From assembly GCA_963555985.3 (NCBI GenBank), contig CAUVXV020000006.1, positions 1 through 27,844 on the forward strand: a DNA stretch of 27,844 bases, given 5' to 3'. The number at the start of each line of letters is the position of its first letter. Position 1 is the first letter of the stretch. Origin of the DNA: Dehalococcoidia bacterium. Its GTDB lineage: Bacteria; Chloroflexota; Dehalococcoidia; Bin125. The notes under the pieces were generated by a model that was not told the DNA's origin, did no database searches, and saw only the letters and a list, made by a program, of their open reading frames with translations. Of this stretch, positions 2,273 through 26,214 are shown one piece after another. Made by a program: the position numbers and the translations under genes.

Positions 2273-4684
2273 TCAGCGCACCAGTTGCACGACGGTAACG
2301 CCTTCGCCGCCCGCTTTCGGCTCGGCGCTCTGGTAGGAGGCGACCTGGGGGTGCCCCTGCAAGAGTTCGCGGATCGCCTTGCGGAGCGCGCCGGTGCCTT
2401 TGCCGTGGACGACTTCGAGGCGGGACTGACCGGCGCGGTAGGCGAGATCGAGGAAGGAGTCGACCATCATGGAGGCTTCGTCGGTGGTATGTCCGCGCAC
2501 GTCGATCTTGGAGCCGGGGTCGATCGGGGGTTTGGGCATTTGCACGCGCTCGCTGCGGGCGCGGGAGGCGGTTCGCGGGTTGGCTTGCTCGCGGGGTGCG
2601 AGCCGTTCGACTTGCTCGGTGCGTACGCGAGTACGCAAGGAGCCGAGCCGCACCTCGAGCGAGCCGTCGTCGATCTTCGAGAGGACTTCGCCCGGCTCGG
2701 CGATTCCGCGTAGGTAGATGAAATCGCCTGCCGCCAGGCGTTCGGGATTGAACGCCTGGGCGCTTGCGTCGGATGTGCGCCGGCGTCGGCGGCGCGAACG
2801 CTCGCGGCGCACTCGTTGCAGGCGATCTCTGGCTTCGTCGGCGCGATGCTCGGCGATCGCTTCCGCCTGTTCGCGGGAGCGCTGGCGGGAGAGTTCTTTG
2901 AGGGCGTCGCGGGAGGCTCGCCGCAAGGCGGCGAGTTCGTCCTCCATGATCCGTTCGGTGCGGGCGAGCATGGCTTCGCGCTCGGTTTCGATGGCGTCGC
3001 GCCGCTCGCTGAGGTTCTTGCGGATCTCTTCGGCTTCGGCGCGCGCGACTTCTTCTGCGCGGCGGGCGTCTGCGAGCGCGTCGCGCTCGTGCTGCAACTC
3101 GCCGAGCAACTGCTCGATCGAGGCTGCGTCGGCGGAGGCGTCGGTGCGGGCGCGGGAGAGGACCTCCGGCGGCATCCCCAGGCGTTCGGCGATGGCGAGC
3201 GCGTTGGAGCGGCCGGGCATTCCCATCAGGAGGCGGTAGGTGGGTTGGAGGGATTCGGAGTCGAACTCTGCGCTGGCGTTGACGATGCCCGGGGTGGAAT
3301 GGGCGAAGATCTTGAGTTCGCCGTGGTGGGTAGTGGCGACGACGGCGGCGTCCTGTTCGAGCAGCTGCTCGAGCAAGGCTCGCGCGAGCGCGGAGCCTTC
3401 GGCGGGATCGGTGCCGGCGCCGAGTTCGTCGAGCAGCACGAGCGTGCGCGGGCCGGCCTCGCTGAGGATGCGGATGATGTTGGTCATGTGGGCGGAGAAG
3501 GTCGAGAGCGACTGCTCGATGCTCTGTTCGTCGCCGATGTCGGCGAAGATGTCGGCGAAGATGGGCAGCTGGGTGCCGCGTTCGGCGGGTACGGGCAGTC
3601 CGGCCTGGGCCATCAGGCAGAGCAGGCCGACGGTCTTGAGCGCGACGGTCTTGCCGCCGGTGTTGGGGCCGGTGATCAGGACGCAGCGAGCGTCCGGCGT
3701 AAGGGCGAGCGAGATCGGAACGACTTCGCCGCTGAGCAAGGGGTGGCGAGCGGAGTGCAAGATCAGTTCAGCGGCGTCGGCTGCCACCCAGTTGAGGGCG
3801 TCGTTCTCCGAGGGCAGGGAGGCGTCGAGCGCTCCGCCGAACAGCGCTTTGGCGCGGGCGAGATCGATTTCGGCGAGACAGCGCACAGCGGCGCGGATCG
3901 CGCCTGCCTCCGCGCCGATCGCCTTGCAGAGTTCGCGCAGGATGCGCTCGATCTCGCGCTGTTCTTCGCGCTGCGCCTCGCGCAGGCGATTGCCCAGTTC
4001 GACGACGGCGAGCGGTTCGACGAAGAGGGTTGCGCCGCTGGCGGAGACGTCGTGGACGACGCTGGGCAGCGCGCCCCGCGCTTCGGCCTTGACCGGGATC
4101 ACGTAGCGGCCGTCGCGCTCGGTGACCAGCGCTTCCTGGGCCACGCCCTCGCCGACGGCGCGGCGGAGGATGCGTTCGAGTTGCTGTTCGAGGCGGCTCT
4201 GCATCGTGCGGACTTCGGCGCGCGCTTCCGCGAGTCTGGGGCTGGCCCGGTCGGGGACTTCTCCGCGCTCGTCAATGGTGTCTTCGATTTCGCGGATTAA
4301 GGGGGAGAAGTCGGCGATGCGCTGGGCGACCCGTCCGAGTTGGGGCAACTCGCGGGTGAGCGGGGCCAAGTGGTTGCGGGTATGTCTGGCGGAGCGGAGG
4401 AGGACCTTGATTTCGAGGATGTCGATCGCGGGGAGGACGCTGCCGCGACTGGCGGCGAGGAGCGATCCGGCGACCTCAGGGGCTTGGCCGATGTAGAAGT
4501 TGGGCTTGACCCTGGCCAAGGTTCGGGCTTCGGCTGTGGCGGAGAGTCGGCGGCGGACTTCGTCGGAGTCGGCGCTGGGAGTTAAGGCGAGCGCGAGTTC
4601 GCGTCCTGCGGGGGTGGCGCAGTGCTCGGCGAGGCGAGCGATCACCTTGGGGAACTCCAGCGCTGTTGCGCTCTTGGCGTCCAC
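2273..4684 (-). CDS. mutS2: Endonuclease MutS2 with C-terminal Smr domain
   Basis: LEFPKV N-terminus, ITGPNTGGKT Walker A, DIGDEQSIEQSLSTFSAH, LLDELGAGTDP, coiled coil, Smr (IDVRG...VVHGKGTGALR...GGEGVT). Start reassigned to GTG 4684 (TTG 4690 also possible). Confidence 0.96.
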   Translation of the reverse strand: MDAKSATALEFPKVIARLAEHCATPAGRELALALTPSADSDEVRRRLSATAEARTLARVKPNFYIGQAPEVAGSLLAASRGSVLPAIDILEIKVLLRSARHTRNHLAPLTRELPQLGRVAQRIADFSPLIREIEDTIDERGEVPDRASPRLAEARAEVRTMQSRLEQQLERILRRAVGEGVAQEALVTERDGRYVIPVKAEARGALPSVVHDVSASGATLFVEPLAVVELGNRLREAQREEQREIERILRELCKAIGAEAGAIRAAVRCLAEIDLARAKALFGGALDASLPSENDALNWVAADAAELILHSARHPLLSGEVVPISLALTPDARCVLITGPNTGGKTVALKTVGLLCLMAQAGLPVPAERGTQLPIFADIFADIGDEQSIEQSLSTFSAHMTNIIRILSEAGPRTLVLLDELGAGTDPAEGSALARALLEQLLEQDAAVVATTHHGELKIFAHSTPGIVNASAEFDSESLQPTYRLLMGMPGRSNALAIAERLGMPPEVLSRARTDASADAASIEQLLGELQHERDALADARRAEEVARAEAEEIRKNLSERRDAIETEREAMLARTERIMEDELAALRRASRDALKELSRQRSREQAEAIAEHRADEARDRLQRVRRERSRRRRRRTSDASAQAFNPERLAAGDFIYLRGIAEPGEVLSKIDDGSLEVRLGSLRTRVRTEQVERLAPREQANPRTASRARSERVQMPKPPIDPGSKIDVRGHTTDEASMMVDSFLDLAYRAGQSRLEVVHGKGTGALRKAIRELLQGHPQVASYQSAEPKAGGEGVTVVQLVR

Positions 4685-15799: not shown

Positions 15800-15815
15800 G
15801 GGTCAGCGATATCTA

Positions 15816-15842
15816 CTCTCCCCCCGCACTGCGGGGGGAGAG
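15816..15842. repeat. Perfect 12-bp GC-rich hairpin (REP-like element or terminator)
   Basis: CTCTCCCCCCGC-ACT-GCGGGGGGAGAG, 16 bp after the TPP gene stop; no poly-T tail. Confidence 0.65.
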
Positions 15843-15923
15843 ATCGAGGGCAAAAGGGGGCCTGGCGAATCGCTAGGTTCTTCGCCACGACCGAATGCTC
15901 GTCGCTACGCGACACAACATGGC

Positions 15924-16221
15924 ATGACCAACCTCCCTCACCCCCAATCTTTCTGGATCGTCCCCGACCAGTTCCTCGCGGGCAACTACCCGGGCGATAG
16001 GACTGAGCAATCCGCATTAGCCAAGCTCAAGCGCGTGCTTGAGGCCGGTGTCAACGTCTTCATCGACCTGACGCAGGAGCATGAACTCCGACCCTATGCC
16101 CATCTGCTGCCTGGGGATGCGACGCACTGCCGCTTCCCGATTCGAGATATGGGCATCCCGAACGCCCCAGACCGCCGAGCAGTCCATCTACATCCGCAGT
16201 TGGCGCGAAACCGCCCGCTGA
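15924..16221 (+). pseudogene. Protein-tyrosine/dual-specificity phosphatase pseudogene (catalytic core deleted, frameshift)
   Basis: N-part FWIVPDQFLAGNYPG...FIDLT...RFPIRDMGIP joins in the +1 frame (from 16162) to a family-like C-terminus TPQTAEQSIYIRSWRETAR*; the HCxxGxGRT loop is absent. Confidence 0.75.
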
Positions 16222-16520: not shown

Positions 16521-17507
16521 ATGCCCGCTGACTGGTTCGAGCGACTCTTCGGCTTCCAGGAGACCTCGGACGCCGTCTATGCCAATCTCAGGGTCGCTGG
16601 CGAGACCCTGCGCTCTCGCGCCAACGGACGCTCCTTCGCCATCGGCACACTCGAAACTCCAACCCTCGCCGAACTGCGTGAGCGGGTTGACATTCGGCGC
16701 GGAACCCCAATCCGCGTCCGCAATATCGTCGGAGAAGCCGGCGCGCTTCACGGCGACCCCGCCAATGCCCATGCACTGATCCAGGCCGCTTCCCAATTCA
16801 ACCTTTTGGAGATGGTCAGCCCGGACGTCACTCCCGAAGCGGGGATCACTGGCTACGCCCGCGACCACACTCAGGGGCCTGCCTGTGCGGTAGCCGCGGC
16901 CGCCGCAACTGTCTACCGCAACTACTTCGTGCCGCTCGGCGATCAGATCGGGCAGACCGCCGACCAGCAGATCGACTGTCTGTGTGACGTTCAGGACTGG
17001 CTCTCTGGCGGCGGAGAGCCGCTCTTTGAAATGCGCAACGGCTACGCCATGCCCGCTCGTGGATTGCTCAGCGCATTCGATGCGAGATTCTCAGCGTTGG
17101 AATCCTCAGAGGTCGACAAACTGCGCTCCTGCCTGCGGATCGGCCTCCACTGGGATGTCGAGGTCACCTACCCCAACGCGGGACATCTCGTCTCTCAGGC
17201 GTACTGTTCTGCGCTGCCGCTCGCGTATTGGCCTGAGTCAAGTGGGCAGGCCAATCGCTTTGCGGCGCTCATCCTCGAAGCGCTGTACGAGGCGACGCTG
17301 TTGGCTGCGATTGAGAACGCCGATCGCTACCCGGGCGCGCCCGTCTACCTCACCAGCGTTGGCGGCGGCGTCTTCGGCAACGATGATCGCTGGATCGTCA
17401 GTGCAATGAATCGAGCCTTCGAGCTCTGCGCCGAGAGCGGGCTTGACGTGCGGATCGTCAACTTCCGCGAGATTACCGACTCATACCAGGCCTTGGAGCG
17501 TGGATGA
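16521..17507 (+). CDS. Conserved hypothetical protein, probably macro/PARG-like
   Basis: DWFERLFGF, QAASQFNLLEM, DHTQGPACA, YRNYF, and VYLTSVGGGVFGN resembling the macrodomain GxGxFG loop; GGAGGAG SD. Confidence 0.75.
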   Translation: MPADWFERLFGFQETSDAVYANLRVAGETLRSRANGRSFAIGTLETPTLAELRERVDIRRGTPIRVRNIVGEAGALHGDPANAHALIQAASQFNLLEMVSPDVTPEAGITGYARDHTQGPACAVAAAAATVYRNYFVPLGDQIGQTADQQIDCLCDVQDWLSGGGEPLFEMRNGYAMPARGLLSAFDARFSALESSEVDKLRSCLRIGLHWDVEVTYPNAGHLVSQAYCSALPLAYWPESSGQANRFAALILEALYEATLLAAIENADRYPGAPVYLTSVGGGVFGNDDRWIVSAMNRAFELCAESGLDVRIVNFREITDSYQALERG

Positions 17508-18702: not shown

Positions 18703-19859
18703 CAGTCGCCCCAACCCACCGCGTCGATTACCTCGTCTGCCGAGACCGAGCGCGTGTCTCCGCCGTCCGCGAGCGACCACGGAGTCGCCGAGAAGTGATA
18801 GGGCGCGCCCGGTCCCGTTACAGCCGCGCCGTCGGCTTGGTAGTCCGTCCACCAATCGCGCGCCTCCAGTTGCGGATTGGCGGCGACTTCCGGCGTCGTC
18901 ATCACCCAGCCGTAGGGGTGATGCCGCCCCTGCGCCTCGTGGAAGAACGGCTCCACCTCCTTCGTTCCGACCCATTCGCGCAGCGTGTTCATGGTCAGTT
19001 CGACCATCTCAGCCAGATTGGCCGGGTCGAGGAAGCGTTCATCCAGCAGCTCCAGTCCGGTGTCCTCCTCAATCAGCCAGACGACTTGCTTCTGAAAGTC
19101 GGGCGTCGGCGTGATCATGATCGAGCCGCCGAGCGCCTGCATCACCACATAGGCGCCCGACCAGTGCAGCGATCCCTGGCGCGGCAAGACCGGACCGTCG
19201 GCAAAGGGCAGTAACTCGTGATACCAAGCCCACATCAACACGTGCTCGAGGATGCTCGACAACGCCTCATGCACCGATAGCCGAACGACCTGACCTGCTC
19301 CGGCCACTCTCGCATGTCGCAGCGCCGACAGCGCCCCCACGGCTGCGTAGGTTCCGGCGACGAAGGCGTACTGGTCTCCGTAGAGCTTGAGCGGCGGCGT
19401 GTCCGCGTCGCCGCTCGTTGCCGCGACGCCACCGAGCGCCTCGGCCACTAACCCGGGCGCGAGATAGTCGGCCCACGGCCCGTCCGGGCCGAACGAACTG
19501 ACATCCACCACTACAAGTGGCGGATTCGCCGCGATTAGCTGCTCGCCGCTCAATCCCGCGGCGGCGAGCCGCCCGCAATCGAGCACGATGTCGGCTTCGG
19601 AGGCGAGTGCGCGAATTGCGGCGGGCTCGTCTGCGACTGCGACGAAACGGCGAGAGCTGGCGAAGAAGGCGTGCCAGAGCGATGCGCCGCTCTCAGCGTG
19701 GAAGGGCGCGCGCTCGCGCAGCGGATCGCCGCCGGGCGGTTCCAGGCGCACCACCTCCGCGCCTAGATCGCCCAGCAACTTACCCGCGTAGATGGCGCGG
19801 TCGTCGGTGAGATCGAGCACCCGCACCTGCGCCAGCGCGCCCGTATTCGCGATTGCCAT
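18702..19859 (-). CDS. CoA-transferase family III (CaiB/BaiF), probable non-catalytic partner subunit
   Basis: VRVLDLT, GKLLGDLGAEVVRLEPPGGDPLR, SSFGPDGP; Ala at the position aligned with the catalytic Asp. Start ATG 19859. Confidence 0.88.
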   Translation of the reverse strand: MAIANTGALAQVRVLDLTDDRAIYAGKLLGDLGAEVVRLEPPGGDPLRERAPFHAESGASLWHAFFASSRRFVAVADEPAAIRALASEADIVLDCGRLAAAGLSGEQLIAANPPLVVVDVSSFGPDGPWADYLAPGLVAEALGGVAATSGDADTPPLKLYGDQYAFVAGTYAAVGALSALRHARVAGAGQVVRLSVHEALSSILEHVLMWAWYHELLPFADGPVLPRQGSLHWSGAYVVMQALGGSIMITPTPDFQKQVVWLIEEDTGLELLDERFLDPANLAEMVELTMNTLREWVGTKEVEPFFHEAQGRHHPYGWVMTTPEVAANPQLEARDWWTDYQADGAAVTGPGAPYHFSATPWSLADGGDTRSVSADEVIDAVGWGD

Positions 19860-19866
19860 GCGCGAG

Positions 19867-19872
19867 AGTCTA
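19867..19872 (-). promoter_or_regulatory. Putative -10 (TAGACT) for a leaderless CoA-transferase operon
   Basis: TAnnnT 7 nt upstream of ATG 19859; no SD. Confidence 0.5.
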
Positions 19873-19938
19873 ACGTCAGCCGCTCCGGTCGCTGATACTC
19901 TCAGAGCACGCCGAGCAGCCGCAACGATGGAGCCCGAG

Positions 19939-21123
19939 ATGGACTTCCGCTTCTCCGACGCCGACCTCGCCTTTCGTGAGGAAGTGATCGATTTCCTCGC
20001 CGACGAACTGCCACCCGGTTGGGCTGACCTCTCCGAGGGGCCGGCTGAGGACGGCGCGGCGAATGAGGCGCGCTGGCAGTTCACGCGACAGTTCCATCAC
20101 CGGCTTGCCGACCGCGGCTGGCTCACGCTCGGCTGGCCGGTCGAGCATGGCGGCGCAGGCGCAGGTCCCGTTCGTCAAGCGATGTTCAATGAAACGATGG
20201 CGCACCACCGTGCGCCCACCTACAACCAGGGCGTCGACCGCGTCGGGCCGACCCTGATCATGTACGGCTCCGATCAGCAGAAGGAGTACTTCCTCCCGCG
20301 CATCCGCAGCGCCGACATCCAGTGGTGCCAGGGCTTCTCCGAGCCGGGCAGCGGCTCCGACCTCGCCTCGCTCCAGACCCGCGCTCAGCGCGACGGCGAC
20401 GACTACATCATCAACGGTCAGAAGATCTGGACCTCCGGCGCGCAGCACGCCGACTGGATCTTCATGCTCGCCCGCACGGAGCCGGACGCGCCCAAACATC
20501 GCGGGATCTCGTTTTTCCTAATCGACATGAAGACGCCCGGGATCACCGTGCGACCGCTAGTCAACATGGCCAACCGGCACCACTTCAACGAGGTCTTCTT
20601 CGAGGACGTGCGCGTGCCCAGCGCGAACATGGTCGGCGAGGTCAATCGCGGCTGGTATGTGGCGACGACGACGCTCGACTTCGAGCGCTCCGGGATTAGC
20701 CGCGTGGTGTCGGGGGTGCGGCTGCTGAACGAGTTGACCGAGTTGGCCTCAATCCCCGGCCCCGACGGCCGCCGTCCCGACGAGGATGTGCGCGTGCGCA
20801 ACAAGCTCGCCGACTTGCAGATCGAGTTCACGGTCGGTCGTTGGCTCGCCTACCGGGTCGCCTGGATGCAGTCGCAGGGGCTGGTCCCGAACCACGAGGC
20901 GTCGATGTCGAAGCTCTACGGCACGATGATCAATCAGCGCTTGGCGGGGATGATCAACATGTTCGGTCTGAGGGGCAACATCTCAGGCGAGCACGAGTAC
21001 GCGCCATTGCACGGGCGGATGCCGGACGAGTATCTGAACGCAGTGCCGCTGACGATTGCGGCAGGTACGAGCGAGATTCAGCGGAACATCATTGCGACGA
21101 GAGGTCTGGGGTTGCCGCGGTAG
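19939..21123 (+). CDS. Acyl-CoA dehydrogenase family protein
   Basis: MDFRFS, WCQGFSEPGSGSDLASL, INGQKIWTS, FNEVFFEDVRVP, TIAAGTSEIQRNII. GGAG SD before ATG 19939. Confidence 0.95.
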   Translation: MDFRFSDADLAFREEVIDFLADELPPGWADLSEGPAEDGAANEARWQFTRQFHHRLADRGWLTLGWPVEHGGAGAGPVRQAMFNETMAHHRAPTYNQGVDRVGPTLIMYGSDQQKEYFLPRIRSADIQWCQGFSEPGSGSDLASLQTRAQRDGDDYIINGQKIWTSGAQHADWIFMLARTEPDAPKHRGISFFLIDMKTPGITVRPLVNMANRHHFNEVFFEDVRVPSANMVGEVNRGWYVATTTLDFERSGISRVVSGVRLLNELTELASIPGPDGRRPDEDVRVRNKLADLQIEFTVGRWLAYRVAWMQSQGLVPNHEASMSKLYGTMINQRLAGMINMFGLRGNISGEHEYAPLHGRMPDEYLNAVPLTIAAGTSEIQRNIIATRGLGLPR

Positions 21124-21231
21124 CTATCCACTCCGGTCGCGGACATCTCATGACCGGTGCCCTTGTCAGGAAGCCGCCGTGTGGCAACACGTGTTCGCGC
21201 AAGATTTTACACGAGGGCCTCTTTATTCCAT

Positions 21232-21261
21232 TTGACAAGAGGAAAAATAATCCCTTATTCT
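21232..21261 (+). promoter_or_regulatory. Sigma70-type promoter upstream of the DGQHR gene
   Basis: TTGACA (21232-21237), 18-bp spacer, TATTCT (21256-21261) in an AT-rich tract. Confidence 0.6.
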
Positions 21262-21319
21262 TCTGACAGCGGTTGATGTTCTACAGAGGGCAAGCAACCG
21301 GGTATCGAAAGGATCCGTC

Positions 21320-22483
21320 GTGGAACTCGTAGTCCAGCGCACGTCAGAAGTCCCAGTTCTCGAGACTGTTGCCCATCGTTTCTGTCAGGGAGGGCGTGCC
21401 GTCTACTATCTGGTCTTGGAAATGGGAGAGTTCGACGACTCACTCCCAGAAGAGGTCAACAGGAAGATCATCCAGGACCAGCGGCGATTCATTCCGTCTC
21501 ACGCGAGCACGATCGCCGACTACTTGCGGGATGTCGAGCAATGGGTACTCGGGCCGGTGACCCTCAGCATCGATCCCAAGTACGTCGAATTTGAGCCATT
21601 CCCCGGCCAAGAGGACGGTCCGCCGAGCGTGCTTGGGAGGTTCCGCATTCGACAAGGTGGTCGCACTGCCCTCAAAATGCTTGATGGGCAGCATCGTCGC
21701 GCAGCGATCCGCCAGGTTCGTACACAGACAGCTCAGACGGCTGAGGGGGCAGAGCTCGTTGAGCGATTCGAGCAGTCTCTGATGCCCGTTGCAATCTATG
21801 AGGAGTCCAAGACTCACGCGATTCGCCAGATGTTCGCAGACATGGCGCAGCAACGACCGCTGGATGCCGTCACTCGTGCCCGATTCGATCGTCGCGATCC
21901 ATTCAATCGCGCCGCAGAAGAGGTAATGGAGCGCAGCGAATGGCTCAGGCAGTTCGTTGAGATGGACCGTCCAAGCGTTGCTCACACGAGCCCAAAACTC
22001 CTCTCCTTCAATCAGCTTGCCGCCAATCTCAAGACCCTGGAGTATGGGTATGGCGGGCGTGTGAGCAAGACGCGTCAGCGAGAAGCCGATCAGAACTTCG
22101 AGAGCATTGTTGACCATGGACTGAACTGGATAGACGACTTCTTGCCCATTGCGCGCGCCGAGTACCTCGTTTTACTCGACTTCGGCGAGGACGAGCACTA
22201 CCTGCCGCAACAGCGTCGAAAGACGTTCGCTTACACGGCAACAATGCTGCGCATTTTAGCTGGCTGCGTCTACGAATGGGATAAGCAAGCGCCGCAAGCC
22301 GATTTGAGTTCGCTCGCGGATTTCATCCGTGGGATCAACTTCGAAACTCACCAGAAGCAGGGCTTGCTCCGCTCGGCTGGTGTGCTTGACCAACCCGGTA
22401 CGTCGATCATCGGTCGGCGCCAAGAAATGCAGAGCACCATCGCTGCAATCGTTCGTGGGGCTGCTAAGCAGCTCGGCAACTAG
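21320..22483 (+). CDS. DGQHR-domain (DndB-like, ParB superfamily) protein
   Basis: QRR...H...IADYL, LGPVTL, MLDGQHRRAAI, IRQMFADM motifs; no dndCDE in the window. Confidence 0.85.
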   Translation: MELVVQRTSEVPVLETVAHRFCQGGRAVYYLVLEMGEFDDSLPEEVNRKIIQDQRRFIPSHASTIADYLRDVEQWVLGPVTLSIDPKYVEFEPFPGQEDGPPSVLGRFRIRQGGRTALKMLDGQHRRAAIRQVRTQTAQTAEGAELVERFEQSLMPVAIYEESKTHAIRQMFADMAQQRPLDAVTRARFDRRDPFNRAAEEVMERSEWLRQFVEMDRPSVAHTSPKLLSFNQLAANLKTLEYGYGGRVSKTRQREADQNFESIVDHGLNWIDDFLPIARAEYLVLLDFGEDEHYLPQQRRKTFAYTATMLRILAGCVYEWDKQAPQADLSSLADFIRGINFETHQKQGLLRSAGVLDQPGTSIIGRRQEMQSTIAAIVRGAAKQLGN

Positions 22484-22540
22484 TCGGCGAGGCATGCCTG
22501 CGTGTCTTCCGGAAATTCTCACGGAAGGAGGTGATGTCCC

Positions 22541-22687
22541 ATGTGGAACATTGGTGAACAGCCAGGCGTCGGACGCTACTGCTGCACAAACTGCGGCTGG
22601 TCCGTCTACCTGGACGACGCCACTGACCGCTTGCCGCCGTGTGGCAACTGCGGCAAGGGTCAGCGAACCACGTACCGGCGCTGCTAG
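22541..22687 (+). CDS. Small zinc-ribbon protein (48 aa)
   Basis: Below the ORF-track cutoff. AAGGAGGTGA SD, then MWNIGEQPGVGRYCCTNCGWSVYLDDATDRLPPCGNCGKGQRTTYRRC* with two CxxC pairs (GExPGxGxYxC..C...LPPC..C). Confidence 0.85.
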   Translation: MWNIGEQPGVGRYCCTNCGWSVYLDDATDRLPPCGNCGKGQRTTYRRC

Positions 22688-22744
22688 CGGGCACCTCCGG
22701 TAGGGCGAGGCTAGGATATCAACGGCCAAGCCCAAGTGGGCCAC

Positions 22745-22785
22745 GGTGCTGCTGGGTAGTCCTTGTAGGATCCCTCAGCAGCACC
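22745..22785. terminator. Long hairpin downstream of the Zn-ribbon gene
   Basis: GGTGCTGCTG (22745-22754) pairs with CAGCAGCACC (22776-22785), with an inner TCCT-TGT-AGGA stem; weak T tail. Confidence 0.45.
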
Positions 22786-22982
22786 TCACTCCTTTGTGGA
22801 CTGCGGACGTACGCATTCCCAAATTGCCCCCAGAATGCGTACACAAGCGACACACAGTGAACTAGCTGGACCTGGCGCGCCCAGTTCTGCTCAGCCCGCT
22901 GGGTCTGCACTTCGGTCGATCTCGGTGTGTGCCCGTCGTATGAGCTCCGCCCGCGATCGGCGGTGGCGAATGCCAGCGAGAC

Positions 22983-23034
22983 AGCGAAGTCCACGCGACA
23001 TCATTGCTACGCGGGGCCTGGGTCCCCCCGCTAG
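22983..23034 (+). pseudogene. Displaced, decayed 3' end of an acyl-CoA dehydrogenase gene
   Basis: AGC GAA GTC CA- CGC GAC ATC ATT GCT ACG CGG GGC CTG GGT C-C CCC CGC TAG = SEV(Q)RDIIATRGLG(L)PR* vs SEIQRNIIATRGLGLPR* at 21070-21123; 38/54 nt identical by hand count; two 1-bp deletions. Confidence 0.85.
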
Positions 23035-23043
23035 AGTGAGTCC

Positions 23044-24424
23044 ATGCCGCCGAACTGGGCCAATCAGACGCTCTGGACGGGTGACAACATCGACATCATG
23101 CGGGGCATGAACTCCGCTTCTGTCGACCTGATCTACCTCGATCCGCCGTTCAACTCCAACCGCGACTACGCTGCGCCGATCGGCTCGGAGGCAGCGGGCG
23201 CTGCCTTCAAGGACACCTGGACGCTGAACGATCTCGATGTCGCCTGGCACGGCGAAGTGGCGGAGCGCGAGCCGGCGCTGGCGGCGGTGATTGAGTCGGC
23301 GGGGCTCTCGCACGGGAGGCCGATGAAGGCCTACCTGATCATGATGTCGGTGCGGCTGTTGGAGCTGAAGCGCATCCTGAAGCCGGACGGCACCATCTAT
23401 CTGCATTGCGACTTGACCGCCGGTCACTACCTGAAGACGGTGATGGACTCGATTTTCGGCCAGGCGCAGTTCCGCAACGACATCATCTGGCGTCGGCAAC
23501 GAGCGAAAGGCCTGGCCACGCGGAACATGGCCAACAACCACGATTTGCTCCTGCGCTATGCGCTCTCCGACGCCGCGACGTACCACGCTCAGTACCAGCC
23601 GCACGACGCCGAATACGCGGAGCGAGCCTATCGACACATCGAGCCAGAAACGGGGCGGCGCTATCGGCTTACGGATCTCACGAACCCCAATCGGAACCGC
23701 CCGAATCTGACCTACGAGTTTTTGGGCGTTCATCGAGTCTGGCGCTGGACGCGCGAGCGGATGGAGCAGGCGCTCGCCCAAGGTCGCGTCGTTCAGACAG
23801 CACCTGGGCGCGTCCCTCGCTACAAGCGCTACCTGGACGAACAGCCCGGACGCGCAGTTGATTCAGTCTGGGATGACATTGGCCCGATCCAGGGACGGGC
23901 CAGAGAGCGCACTGGCTATCCGACGCAGAAGCCTCTTGCCTTGCTGGAGCGGATCGTCTCGCTCTCGTCCCACCCAGGCGATCTCGTCTTCGATCCGTTC
24001 TGCGGTTTGCGCGACTGCGTGCGTGGCGGCGGAGAAGTTGGAGCGTCAGTGGGTCGGGATCGACATTTCACCAAAGGCGGCCGAGCTCGTCCGCACTCGT
24101 ATGCAGCGCGAGCTGGGTCTGTTCTACACCGGAGCGCACCGCACTGATGTCCCCCAGCGGACTGACCTGGGCGATTTGCCGCCGTACAGTTCGCCGTCGA
24201 ACAGGCAGTTGCTCTACGGCGCGCAAGAGGGTCGCTGCAACGGCTGTCTGACCTGGTTCCCGTTCCGCAACATGACGATCGATCATGTCGTGGCGCGTTC
24301 TCGCGGGGGCACTGACCACATTGAGAATCTGCAACTGCTCTGCGGGGCGTGCAATTCGACGAAGGGCACGGGTACGCAAGAGGACCTGATCGCGCGGCTG
24401 CGTGATCAGGGGATTCGCACCTAA
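23044..24424 (+). pseudogene. Beta-class N4/N6 DNA methyltransferase fused to a C-terminal HNH nuclease, with a +1 frameshift
   Basis: LIYLDPPFNS (motif IV), GYPTQKPLALLERI, DPFCG. Removing one T at 24006-24008 gives FCGCATACVAAEKLERQWVGID and continues to CNGC...IDHVVARSRGGTDHIENLQLLCGACNSTKG (459 aa). May be a sequencing error. Confidence 0.88.
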
Positions 24425-24513
24425 TCGCTGCGCGCGTAGGCGTTGCCCAGCGCGCCCTACGAGGCCACCAGCAAGGGGACGCAGTAGGTCAGTGGGATCT
24501 TCGAGGCGAGTTC
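24421..24513 (-). pseudogene. Displaced, decayed 3' end of the nrtS-like gene
   Basis: Reads ELASKIPLTYCVPLLVAS*GALGNAYARSD* vs ELAWKVPLTYCVPFLVASWGALGNAYARN* at 25497-25586; mostly third-position differences plus one TGG>TAG nonsense change. Confidence 0.9.
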
Positions 24514-24685
24514 AGCGTGTTGCGCACTTGCACGGGAGGCGAACGTCGGGAAGGTGCAGCGACGGGACTTCACGTCAGGCGGTGCTGCGAAACTTGCCAT
24601 CTGCGGAAGACGGTTCGCGTTCCGCCGACTCGAGCCAGTCGGGGCGCAATGTCGCCATGACGCGGGCGTCCTATGTGGTCTGCGC

Positions 24686-25084
24686 TTACTCAGGGAGTCT
24701 GGCCTCGTGGAGCCAGTTGTCCTTCAGGGTTGTGAGTTCGTGGTAGGTGGCGCCGCGCTCGTGGAATTCGTCGTCTGCGACCTCGAAGTTGGTTAGGGCG
24801 AGCGGGGGCCGGTCGGGCAGTTCGACAATGACGCTGAGTCGGCCTCCCATCGCCTCGAGGCACTGGTGGAGCAGTCCAAGAATCTTCTCGTTCGATTCCT
24901 GCGGCACCGGTCCATGGTTGTCGCAAGCAGAGGGGCAGCCGGCGATGACGTCGTGCGCATGCACAAGGGCTTTGCGGAATTCGCGCAGTGTTTCGTGCTG
25001 CATATTGAGCGCTTCGACCCGCCGATCGTGCGCTTGACGCTCGGCCGGGGACATCTCACTGAGAAGGTCTTGCAGAGTAACCAC
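24686..25084 (-). CDS. XRE/HigA-type antitoxin with a degenerate helix-turn-helix
   Basis: TLREFRKA and EAMGGRLSVIVELPDRPPL match this antitoxin family; 8 bp downstream of the toxin with a GGAG SD; middle segment atypical. Confidence 0.75.
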   Translation of the reverse strand: MVTLQDLLSEMSPAERQAHDRRVEALNMQHETLREFRKALVHAHDVIAGCPSACDNHGPVPQESNEKILGLLHQCLEAMGGRLSVIVELPDRPPLALTNFEVADDEFHERGATYHELTTLKDNWLHEARLPE

Positions 25085-25092
25085 ACTGGCTC

Positions 25093-25449
25093 CTATTCGG
25101 CCCGGAGTCGCTCTAGATGGTCAGCATAGCGAGCGTCGGCTTGGCTCACCAAACGCCTGTAGAACCGTCGCTGATCTGCGCCTCGTTTATCTCCGGCAAC
25201 CAGCAAGATTGCTCGCCGGCGAGGATCGAAGGCGAAGGCGACGCGCCAGACGCCGCGATCCGTGTCGAGTCGTAGCTCCTTCATGTTCGCGTACTGAGAG
25301 TTGCGAAGCGTGTCCACCTCAGGCCGGCCAAGCTGCGGACCATCCTGCGCCAATCGGTCGAAACGGTCGAGCATGGTACGTCGAACCGTGGCCGGCAGGG
25401 TCGAGAATTCGCGCCGGAACGCGGGGTGGAGTTGGACTGCCCATGCCAT
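25093..25449 (-). CDS. Type II toxin, RelE/HigB (Gp49-like) family
   Basis: MAWAVQLHPAF, GPQLGRPEVDTL, NMKELR, WRVAFAFDPRRRAILLVAGDK, ADARYADHL. Start reassigned to ATG 25449. Confidence 0.92.
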   Translation of the reverse strand: MAWAVQLHPAFRREFSTLPATVRRTMLDRFDRLAQDGPQLGRPEVDTLRNSQYANMKELRLDTDRGVWRVAFAFDPRRRAILLVAGDKRGADQRRFYRRLVSQADARYADHLERLRAE

Positions 25450-25496
25450 GCGGACATCGTGACACTGCATCCGCGACTGGATCAAGAATATTTGAC

Positions 25497-25787
25497 CTAG
25501 TTCCGCGCGTATGCATTCCCCAACGCACCCCAGGACGCCACCAGAAACGGCACGCAATAAGTCAACGGAACCTTCCAGGCCAACTCCCACGTGCCATCGC
25601 CGGCGACGATCACCGTGCCCTGATTGATCGCCACCAGGATCGTCCCCACGACGGCGCTGGTCAGGATCGAGCGGCGGAGCATTCGCCGGTTGCGGAGGGC
25701 GCAGCGCCAGCACTCCAACCGCTCCTTCATCCGAAAGTGGCGGCCTTGCGGCGGATTCGACAGATGTGGACAGGCGACCACGCTCAT
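25497..25787 (-). CDS. nrtS: NrtS-like small membrane protein
   Basis: AVVGTILVAINQG and LTYCVPFLVAS are characteristic of the family. Start 25787 (leaderless) or 25730. Confidence 0.75.
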   Translation of the reverse strand: MSVVACPHLSNPPQGRHFRMKERLECWRCALRNRRMLRRSILTSAVVGTILVAINQGTVIVAGDGTWELAWKVPLTYCVPFLVASWGALGNAYARN

Positions 25788-25806: not shown

Positions 25807-26214
25807 GTGCGCCCGCTCAACATCTTCTTCGACGTCGACGGCTGTCTGGTCTCCTGGAATCTGCAGATTCGCCCCTATGCGCGGGAGGTGCTGGAGCGCT
25901 TGCAGGATCGCGGCCACCATGTCTACATGTGGTCGGGCTACGGGGCGCGGCGTGAGGTGGCCGACAAGCACGACCTCTGGCCGCTGCTGGCTGGGATTAT
26001 GGGCAAGCCGATCTTCCAGTACCGCCAGCGGCTGCACCTCTTCACCGACATCGAGCCGGACTTCATCATTGACGATCACCACGAGATCGTCGCGGCGCTC
26101 GGCGGCGCGGTGATCCGTCCGCCGCGCGAACCGCTGGCTCAGGACCGCGAGATGGTCAGAATCTACCGGCGGATTCTGGAGTTCGAGCGCAGCCATCGCG
26201 CCCGCTACGCCTGA
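25807..26214 (+). CDS. Minimal capless HAD-superfamily hydrolase
   Basis: IFFDVDGCL (DxD), IRPYAREVL, VYMWSG, GKP, FIIDD motifs. Start reassigned to GTG 25807. Confidence 0.8.
   Translation: MRPLNIFFDVDGCLVSWNLQIRPYAREVLERLQDRGHHVYMWSGYGARREVADKHDLWPLLAGIMGKPIFQYRQRLHLFTDIEPDFIIDDHHEIVAALGGAVIRPPREPLAQDREMVRIYRRILEFERSHRARYA

Follow-up and report, generated by a model that had tools for sequence, protein, structure and literature searches.

Displaced gene ends around small toxin-antitoxin and defence cargos in a Dehalococcoidia bacterium point to recombination at gene boundaries without an integrase

Here, we analysed a stretch of 27,844 nucleotides from a Dehalococcoidia bacterium (contig CAUVXV020000006.1 of assembly GCA_963555985.3; hereafter, the window), in which two host genes, ACAD and nrtS, each precede a small cargo, behind which lies a decayed copy of the end of the same gene. 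A first-pass annotation of the sequence had described these two units, and both repeats are present where it placed them. Gene-end duplication of this kind is recurrent and directional in the genome. We propose that it reflects integrase-free recombination at conserved gene boundaries, in which a piece of a relative's locus is added beside the resident one, so that the gene end is duplicated and displaced, and we put the probability that this was the main process behind the window's two events at about 0.6. Known patterns of integrase-free insertion and displacement are thereby extended to toxin-antitoxin (TA) and defence cargos behind ordinary Dehalococcoidia genes, with no new enzyme or system.

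Results

Two stacked units in a minor-strain allele

The whole window is contig C7 of an assembly of 11 contigs and 3.33 Mb (96% completeness, 7.5% contamination) and is a minor-strain variant of the main chromosome. Its counterpart there is G000:C1:1658076-1687391 on the minus strand (hereafter, the main allele), and in blastn the flanking blocks of the two alleles share ~97.5% identity, with few indel blocks between them. Both alleles are present among contigs from three public runs (X1-X3), which belong to a single study that possibly includes the source sample; depth in these contigs is ~3 for window-type pieces and ~13-20 for main-allele pieces. The features of the region are collected in Table 1.

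Table 1. Features of the ACAD-nrtS region, in positions of the window
Feature	Position	Strand	Description
ACAD gene	19930-21123	+	Pfam ACAD N, M and C domains; the functional copy of the duplicated end occupies the last ~60-80 nt (about 21046-21123)
Cargo 1	21124-22799	+	low-GC leader, DGQHR/DndB-like gene 21320-22483 (Pfam DndB 1.3e-37; TIGR03187 DGQHR 4.6e-30), 48-aa zinc-ribbon gene 22541-22687 (DUF1451 1.3e-5)
nrtS-tail remnant 2	22800-22880	-	older; back-to-back with the ACAD remnant; found by tblastn
Joint of the two stacked units	22889		homology to the main allele resumes; blastn block 22889-24513, 97.2% to C1
Decayed ACAD-tail remnant	22960-23034	+	ends in TAG, 9 nt ahead of the MTase-HNH start
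MTase-HNH	23044-24424	+	N6/N4 DNA methyltransferase fused to an HNH nuclease (Pfam N6_N4_Mtase 1.6e-31, HNH 2.9e-12)
nrtS-tail remnant 1	24421-24513	-	29 codons and a stop, with one internal stop; its stop overlaps that of MTase-HNH
Cargo 2	24514-25496	-	172-nt spacer, antitoxin-like gene 24686-25084, Gp49/HigB-type toxin gene 25093-25452 (Pfam Gp49 7.5e-20), 41-nt leader
Functional nrtS	25497-25730	-	NCBIfam NrtS NF038050, 32.2 bits (cut-off 25); diverged, 'recoded' end in the last 87 nt (25497-25583)
Hydrolase gene frame	25807-26214		HAD-type

At nrtS, the direct repeat (24431-24507 and 25504-25580) comprises 77 nt without gaps that are 77% identical, at a spacing of 1073, and the flanking repeat as a whole measures 77-89 nt, that is, more than 30 bp. 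The duplicated end had been put at 31 codons; the duplication stands, but its length is 29 codons. Between the working end (25500-25586) and remnant 1 (24424-24513), 20 of 28 codons differ, 16 of them synonymously and 4 nonsynonymously, which bears out the earlier observation that the copies differ mainly at synonymous sites, and within remnant 1 a tryptophan codon has changed into a stop. The functional end had also been described as recoded, with fewer C-ending codons, and the third codon letters agree: C5 G17 T6 A1 in the working end, C16 G11 T0 A2 in remnant 1, and C16 G10 T1 A2 in the nrtS end of the main chromosome.

At the TA site, the main allele has no insert: cargo 2 is missing, and a public-run contig (X3) joins position 24498 directly to 25572. 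The nrtS end of this empty-site allele matches remnant 1 at 76/84 nt and the working end of the window at only 65/79, with 16 of 28 codons differing from the latter, 15 of them synonymously. The first-pass annotation had held that cargo-free gene ends resembling the proximal copies would speak against it; for nrtS, the cargo-free end resembles the distal one. In the next ~125-135 nt, the middle of nrtS, the alleles differ at ~5 positions (hand count from the alignment). Remnant 1 and the main allele are identical over the 28 nt beside MTase-HNH, and the other 61 nt hold all 8 differences (again a hand count), a distribution that a crossover inside the remnant would fit, although the numbers are small. 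The working end is closest to two relatives of genus g7 (71/84 and 65/78), one of which, G021, carries a toxin gene of 67% identity directly behind its nrtS.

These comparisons bear on an alternative, de novo insertion with long target duplication, in which unrelated foreign DNA is inserted, through template switching or into a staggered break, and 30-140 nt of the target come to lie on both sides of it. Both copies would then be resident at birth and diverge later, and the recoded nrtS end would stem from a later homologous exchange. A remnant close to the empty-site allele and a working end far from it argue against this scenario, which we regard as unlikely for the two events in the window.

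The ACAD repeat is weaker. Its exact-seed part (21086-21110 and 22998-23022) covers 25 nt at 84%, at a spacing of 1912, and with gaps it extends to ~78 nt at 69%, for an overall length of ~60-78 nt. The remnant copies the last ~18-25 codons of the gene, whose protein ends in ...TSEIQRNIIATRGLGLPR*, and the working and remnant ends encode the same residues. A tblastn search with the ACAD tail yields E 0.018 for the window and 5e-4 for the copy on the main chromosome, and in blastn the remnant is closest to the ACAD end of a relative from genus g8 (88% over 43 nt, E 2e-9). It is also found in the main allele, but with different indels. The ACAD remnant is therefore real, yet old and indel-broken. 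Identity to the main allele is 100% over 18750-20500, including the ACAD gene up to about 20500, and drops to 88.5% over the final ~120 nt of this gene, which is what one would expect had each cargo brought its own ACAD stretch. Cargo 1 (~1.8 kb, compared with ~1.0 kb for cargo 2) has a GC content of 0.53-0.60 against 0.65 in the flanks and is not at this position in the main allele. There is no empty ACAD site in the own genome; in one relative (G009), ACAD and nrtS lie 52 nt apart.

The first-pass annotation had noted that removal of both cargos restores a tight layout, and this is so. The TAG of the ACAD remnant (23032-23034) is followed after 9 nt by the ATG of MTase-HNH at 23044, and the TAA of the latter (24422-24424) overlaps the stop of nrtS remnant 1 (CTA, 24421-24423). 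On the nrtS side, the tight layout is realised in the main allele, where MTase-HNH overlaps an intact nrtS.

Two features had been overlooked. The first is nrtS remnant 2 (27 aa, 48% identity; tblastn E 2e-5 in a small database and 3.4e-4 in the whole genome), which is covered by an independent contig from run X1 with 0 differences. Position 22889 falls between this remnant and the ACAD remnant, and to its left the alleles differ, with the DGQHR unit in the window and an MTase-HNH paralog in the main allele. The second is a 1-nt frameshift in MTase-HNH, caused by one extra T at 24004-24006 (TTT, as against TT in the main allele, which has an intact 459-aa open reading frame, ORF) at an FxGxG-type motif. 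Contigs without this T carry main-allele single-nucleotide polymorphisms, and window-type contigs do not confirm it. Either the gene is truly a pseudogene in the minor strain, or the extra base is an indel of the assembly.

A family hotspot between ACAD and nrtS

The gene order in the window is ACAD / DGQHR-DndB-like and zinc-ribbon genes / nrtS remnant 2 / ACAD remnant / MTase-HNH / nrtS remnant 1 / antitoxin and toxin / nrtS / HAD-type hydrolase, and that in the main allele is ACAD / second MTase-HNH / ACAD remnant / MTase-HNH / nrtS / DGQHR and zinc-ribbon genes / hydrolase. The slot behind ACAD thus holds different cargos in the two alleles; the second MTase-HNH shares 47-76% protein identity with the first. 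Across 15 loci in 14 genomes, CoA-transferase, ACAD, variable part, nrtS (convergent), hydrolase and binding protein follow each other in conserved order, and the gap between ACAD and nrtS ranges from the 52 nt of G009 to more than 20 kb in G007. Relatives fill this gap with an MTase-HNH of either type, two-gene pairs, a toxin gene homologous to that of the window, or large ORFs whose N-terminus shows a DUF262-like motif (assigned by eye, outside any profile scan). A further ACAD remnant lies beside nrtS in the single-contig relative G014 (E 0.009 for protein, 3e-7 for DNA), and a weaker one is found in G011 (E 5.6e-4).

Several other observations concern this hotspot. In the main allele, from G000:C1:1660481-1661656 onward, a DGQHR gene (48% identical) and a zinc-ribbon gene (83%) stand between nrtS and the hydrolase, so that the nrtS-hydrolase gap is a second variable slot with the same two-gene module. 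Behind ACAD in G014 (C1, locus 4146-4567) there is an internally deleted MTase-HNH, with the N-terminal 77 aa joined to the C-terminal 68 aa. In G007 (C1:1063600-1082200), ~20 kb separate MTase-HNH from nrtS, without a PF00589 match inside.

Recurrence across the genome

The genome-wide count of gene tails that the first-pass annotation had proposed was made with the last 30 aa of 3542 frames, a crude gene proxy drawn from 13,728 stop-to-stop frames of at least 110 aa by GC content at the third (GC3 >= 0.72) and second (GC2 < 0.62) codon positions. Among 231 same-strand matches at most 15 kb downstream, 41 were tail-only, that is, with homology over no more than 60 aa. At E <= 1e-4, tail-only matches make up 21 of 156 on the same strand downstream and 1 of 111 on the same strand upstream; on the opposite strand, the counts are 3 of 7 downstream and 0 of 1 upstream. 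The lengths of the 156 same-strand downstream remnants are bimodal, with 22 of up to 60 aa, 4 of 61-100 aa and the rest long or full length.

We estimate ~13-15 distinct events in 3.3 Mb, after merging by hand antisense shadow ORFs (17172/18707, 2994770/2992268 and 591336/593444) and the haplotype copies on C5 and C10; the estimate omits C1:2505370, 529866, 2091013 and 989000, which involve dispersed or short tandem repeats. A search for low-copy repeat pairs on C1 that ignored coding (35-250 nt long, spaced 300-5000 nt) gave 33 direct and 2 inverted pairs, some of the direct ones being conserved parts of tandem paralogs.

One candidate, at C1:1875837, was not counted, because there a tandem segmental duplication takes in an entire gene together with the tail of its neighbour. 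The inserts at C1:1356976 and 2091013 contain dispersed repeats of ~100-300 nt, with 185 and 318 blastn matches genome-wide, and the latter insert includes an ORF that resembles a GIY-YIG nuclease by eye (no profile scan).

Decayed tandem paralogs, or an artefact of assembling mixed strains, might produce similar pictures. The genome is indeed rich in tandem paralogs, given that 117 of the 156 downstream tail matches show homology over more than 150 aa or the whole query, and the assembly contains strain-variant contigs. Decay of paralogs should be symmetric, however, in conflict with 21 tail-only matches downstream and 1 upstream, and should leave more remnants of intermediate length than 4 of 156. 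Empty sites exist in relatives, the ACAD remnant recurs in the single-contig genome G014, and independent contigs cross the junctions with 0 differences: a 2144-nt public-run contig is identical to window 20911-23054 and another to 25225-25614, while a third, over 24467-25138, has 13 differences. Taken together, these data largely refute this explanation, which we consider hardly credible.

Anatomy of the events

The duplicated segments of the events measure 38-136 nt and are 67-97% identical. The joint between the working copy and the cargo lies from 19 nt before to ~30 nt after the stop codon, and where the match ends ahead of the stop codon, the working copy stops within 1-7 codons, so that the working ends look like real gene ends. 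Targets include genes for a dehydrogenase, a transporter and an aquaporin-like protein. The cargos (0.7-2.1 kb, several of them 690-800 nt) are single-copy and mutually unrelated, the one weak pair in an all-versus-all tblastx comparison being due to dispersed repeats. Those identified include VapBC with a PIN domain, HicAB, a Uma2 endonuclease, an SDH-type protease and a retropepsin-like protein, and several pairs match no family. Some cargo genes are cut at the junction. In one cargo, an AF2212-like antitoxin gene stands beside an ORF that resembles the C-terminus of a PIN domain by eye (no Pfam match), and in another, a HigA-type helix-turn-helix protein gene stands beside a fragment that resembles, also by eye, a truncated HigB C-terminus.

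Three loci are particularly complex or have informative counterparts in relatives. The locus at C1:2766488 reads X / A1 / T1 (ending after ~62 codons, truncated) / X-tail remnant / A2 / T2 (full) / Z; the counterpart in three g7 genomes (G018, G024 and G013) is X / A / T (full) / Z, and in six relatives X and Z are 8-55 nt apart. At C1:623243, the order is X / VapBC / remnant / Y, compared with X / VapBC / Y without a remnant in G043 and X / Y in G021 and G013. The third locus, at C1:~17.5 kb, repeats the back-to-back pattern of window position 22889: the head of Y (200 nt, 94%) and the tail of X (136 nt, 97%) are copied next to each other, and two diverged versions of a single two-gene cargo flank the pair.

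Relatives of genus g7 thus carry homologous cargos directly behind the same genes with no detectable remnant (nrtS and toxin in G021, X and VapBC in G043, X and A-T in G018, G024 and G013). Five local-alignment tests for remnants in these cargo-carrying relatives were all non-significant against shuffled sequences (187-433 of 500 shuffles reached the score). Under insertion with long target duplication, one would not expect relatives to have the same cargo at the same gene and no repeat, nor cargos to contain pieces of the other flanking gene, nor working copies to end in frame 1-7 codons past the end of the match. The near-identical repeats of the young events, conversely, are what that scenario predicts.

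Recombinases and the case against site-specific integration

A six-frame search of the own genome with PF00589 gave 2 matches (frames of 332 and 348 aa, 156-164 bits), which we take, as a label only, to be XerC/D-like; neither lies in any cargo or near any event, and the same holds for the location of a single weak match to PF00239 with respect to the events. In the window, six-frame profile searches with PF00589 and PF00239 gave no match. Four of five relatives also have 2 PF00589 matches. In G021 there are five, of which three are on another contig; no match falls in the hotspot. Scans with Pfam, NCBIfam and PADLOC revealed no mobility genes in the cargos, only the DGQHR protein, the zinc ribbon and the Gp49 toxin, and for the 132-aa antitoxin-like partner of the latter no family was matched in the Pfam and NCBIfam scans. 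No shared motif was seen by eye in 40 nt on each side of 14 repeat pairs, a comparison made without a motif program. Ku was not found in the own genome, which at 96% completeness does not prove its absence, and the one ComEC present is by itself no indication of competence. The description of the cassettes as integrase-free, recurrent and lodged in unrelated genes therefore holds, with two PF00589 matches only and ~13-15 events.

The possibility of a trans-acting or dedicated recombinase, also raised in the first-pass annotation, fares worse. A fixed-site recombinase is strongly ruled against by at least 13 targets, the lack of a junction motif, non-conserved ends, junctions inside cargo genes that leave these truncated, and a complement of only two XerC/D-like genes. 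In its most specific form, this idea envisages a dedicated system of integrase-less cassettes mobilised in trans by a site-specific recombinase, for example of the Xer type, much like cis-mobilisable elements or dif modules. The small and similar sizes of the cargos (several at 690-800 nt), the exclusively direct repeats and the XerC/D-like genes would suit such a system. Repeat lengths from 38 to 136 nt, the lack of a common core or motif by eye, ends that are not conserved in 6 homologous cassettes and junctions within cargo genes would not, and each target would need its own site; we judge this scenario very improbable.

Nearly as improbable, in our estimation, is descent from heavily eroded integrative elements, that is, former islands with an integrase and an attachment (att) site in the gene end from which all but the addictive module was deleted. 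Integration into a gene 3' end with a replacement end is the classic signature of an integrase, and TA modules resist loss. Erosion to islets consisting of TA genes only has been proposed in the portions of a 2026 study drawn on here (PMC13617665). Such erosion is difficult to reconcile with ~13-15 different target genes, with the six-frame search, in which no integrase fragment appeared beyond the two XerC/D-like genes, with cargo end genes that are cut exactly at the junction, with back-to-back remnants of both flanking genes, and with homologous cassettes that have unrelated ends.

The same footprint around the toxin family in other phyla

Loci of the toxin family represented in cargo 2 were tested for short repeats flanking the TA pair within 2.5 kb, with at least 1.5 kb of sequence required on both sides. 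Direct flanking repeats were found at 9 of 61 loci on genome contigs and at 4 of 30 on metagenome contigs, together 13 of 91 loci from many phyla, and inverted ones at none in either set. The repeat corresponds to the end of the upstream gene in metagenome-assembled genomes (MAGs) of Rhizobium and Acidobacteriota and to the start of the downstream gene in MAGs of Latescibacterota and Terracidiphilus. In a Limnohabitans MAG, one gene end is present three times, and at metagenome locus L162 the repeat is a perfect, intergenic one of 51 nt. The spacers at both ends of six homologous TA cassettes from 6 genomes (41-131 nt and 10-327 nt) are unrelated.

These loci speak for insertion with long target duplication, which would account for the perfect 51-nt intergenic repeat around the same TA family, for direct repeats at 13 of 91 loci with no inverted ones, and for repeats of variable length around cassettes whose ends are not conserved.

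At two further loci, L143 and L098, the same short direct repeat occurs in at least 3 copies around and beyond the TA pair. These arrays suggest repeated insertions at one gene end in other phyla.

Discussion

We infer the route of recombination proposed here from the observed anatomy, empty-site allele, recurrence, direction, lack of integrases, non-conserved ends and relatives in which the same cargo accompanies the same gene. DNA of a related genome would arrive with the equivalent locus, namely, the conserved gene end with a small accessory module behind it, at times extending into the other flanking gene, and would be placed beside the resident version instead of replacing it. One joint would form via homology in the conserved gene end, such that the working gene would come to end in the donor's synonymously different codons; the other would be illegitimate or circle-closing and would displace the resident gene end downstream, where it would persist as a dead copy. 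Stacked units would result from repeated events, and addictive or defensive cargos would presumably be the survivors between such direct repeats. Candidate routes include a single crossover of a circularised fragment, one-sided homologous joining combined with illegitimate joining, and replicative template switching. Among the three candidates put forward in the first-pass annotation (a trans-acting recombinase, homology-facilitated illegitimate recombination and heavily eroded elements), the second fits best. Displacement by a donor locus would explain the foreign working end of nrtS, the back-to-back remnants and the stacked alternative alleles, as well as the truncated cargo genes, the cargo-bearing relatives without a remnant and the rapid in-frame stops.

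Several observations weigh against this interpretation. In the events at the aquaporin-like and thioesterase-like genes, identity to relatives did not separate the working end from the remnant, and at C1:2766488 it is ambiguous which unit is resident and which incoming. The near-identical copies (136 nt at 97% and 84 nt at 95%) and the intergenic repeat at L162 (51/51 nt) fit true target duplication as well or better, and the excess of differences at third codon positions (~94 of 173, hand-summed) is expected under both models. For the TA cargo of the window, the best matches have 67% (genome contigs) and 62% (metagenome contigs) protein identity; with no donor closer than these, the illegitimate joint cannot be inspected for microhomology. 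Finally, with an identity of only 77% the 87-nt nrtS ends have diverged too far for an efficient RecA crossover, and the event probably took place elsewhere and reached this strain later. Both processes may be at work, for example with target duplication creating a cassette and displacement spreading it, the remnant serving as a homology arm.

The first-pass annotation had regarded the locus as the best candidate for an undescribed system, a claim that does not survive comparison with the literature, given that both insertion with long target duplication and C-terminal displacement have been published. The former was reportedly described by Nobusato et al. in 2000. In the portions of their work used here, Furuta, Abe and Kobayashi (2010; PMC2853133) report such insertions for restriction-modification systems without other mobile elements: the repeats exceed 30 bp, vary in length, in some cases overlap the 3' end of a gene and are single-copy in the empty-site genome, and insertion is ascribed to DNA cutting by the restriction-modification system, with the mechanism left open. 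This precedent, with the same features, favours target duplication at our loci, too. The inserts described here likewise are smaller than 20 kb, lack mobility genes, carry addictive cargo and are flanked by direct repeats of more than 30 bp and variable length that can overlap a gene 3' end, and for nrtS there is an empty-site allele with a single-copy repeat. They differ in cargo, here TA pairs, a DGQHR protein, a Uma2 nuclease and proteases rather than restriction-modification systems (MTase-HNH, although situated between the two remnants, does not belong to the inserted part when the window is compared with the main allele), in the unequal relation of the two nrtS copies to the empty site (65/79 for the working end, 76/84 for the remnant), and in the stacking of units of alternative alleles.

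The second pattern comes from polymorphic toxins. The parts of Jackson et al. (2009; PMC2935791) and Kirchberger et al. (2017; PMC5361080) considered here attribute arrays of displaced rhs tips to a single crossover of a circular intermediate with a piece of the conserved core and, respectively, invoke homology-facilitated illegitimate recombination for arrays of effector-immunity genes of type VI secretion systems, with orphan arrays also in contact-dependent inhibition (CDI) systems. There, as here, an intact gene is followed by dissociated 3' fragments that retain conserved sequence, successive insertions form arrays without an integrase, and the proposed routes are those that we infer. The arrays in our material are formed by the window's three remnants, two of nrtS and one of ACAD, and by the stacks at C1:~17.5 kb and C1:2766488. 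In the polymorphic toxins, according to the same parts of these papers, the new tip is a different toxin domain with its immunity gene; here, in contrast, the hosts are ordinary genes, the new end encodes the same protein and the payload forms a module of its own downstream of the gene.

Homology-facilitated illegitimate recombination combines one homologous anchor, adjacent foreign DNA and an illegitimate other end without dedicated enzymes, as proposed here. It has reportedly been shown in laboratory transformation, by de Vries and Wackernagel and by Prudhomme et al., both in 2002, whereas in our case a donor was not found. The elements e14 and phage 21 integrate in icd by means of an element-encoded integrase and supply a replacement 3' end; as in the window, element-borne sequence completes the working gene and the old end becomes a distal partial copy, but this type of integration needs the element's integrase and a fixed att core, neither of which was found.

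How small TA and defence islets enter chromosomes without mobile-element genes is debated. The 2026 study of TA islets (PMC13617665) argues for erosion of larger elements followed by homologous exchange, and the terms 'direct repeats' and 'illegitimate' are absent from the portions of its text drawn on here. In the literature searched, supplements excluded, we found no account of gene-end duplicates around TA islets. Duplicates of neighbouring gene ends in direct orientation are a countable footprint that links such islets to long target duplication and C-terminal displacement. The presence of this footprint at 13 of 91 toxin-family loci from many phyla makes it usable as a simple genomic marker of integrase-free gene gain, and it offers a way to polarise donor versus resident sequence. 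A bolder and doubtful extension is that the duplicated gene end is the working attachment arm of an integrase-free, 'homology-armed' cassette that would carry addictive modules (TA pairs, restriction-modification-like genes or nucleases) in many phyla and would leave by RecA recombination between the copies and re-enter, or convert, wherever the conserved gene is present, whatever lies downstream. If true, this would provide a general route for TA islets without mobile-element genes.

Sequence reliability and minor observations

One base at window position 24670 is missing in the aligned contigs of all three public runs (depth 2-3.3 each), which suggests that the window contig contains small indel errors. 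In the window, no Rfam family reached its gathering score and no tRNA was present. Two further differences between the alleles lie upstream of the ACAD gene: a 372-nt block at 15805-16177 stands in place of 1072 nt in the main allele, and a patch at 16750-17250 has 77-87% identity to the main allele, in surroundings of 92-100%. The locus is a recombination mosaic well past the ACAD-nrtS region.

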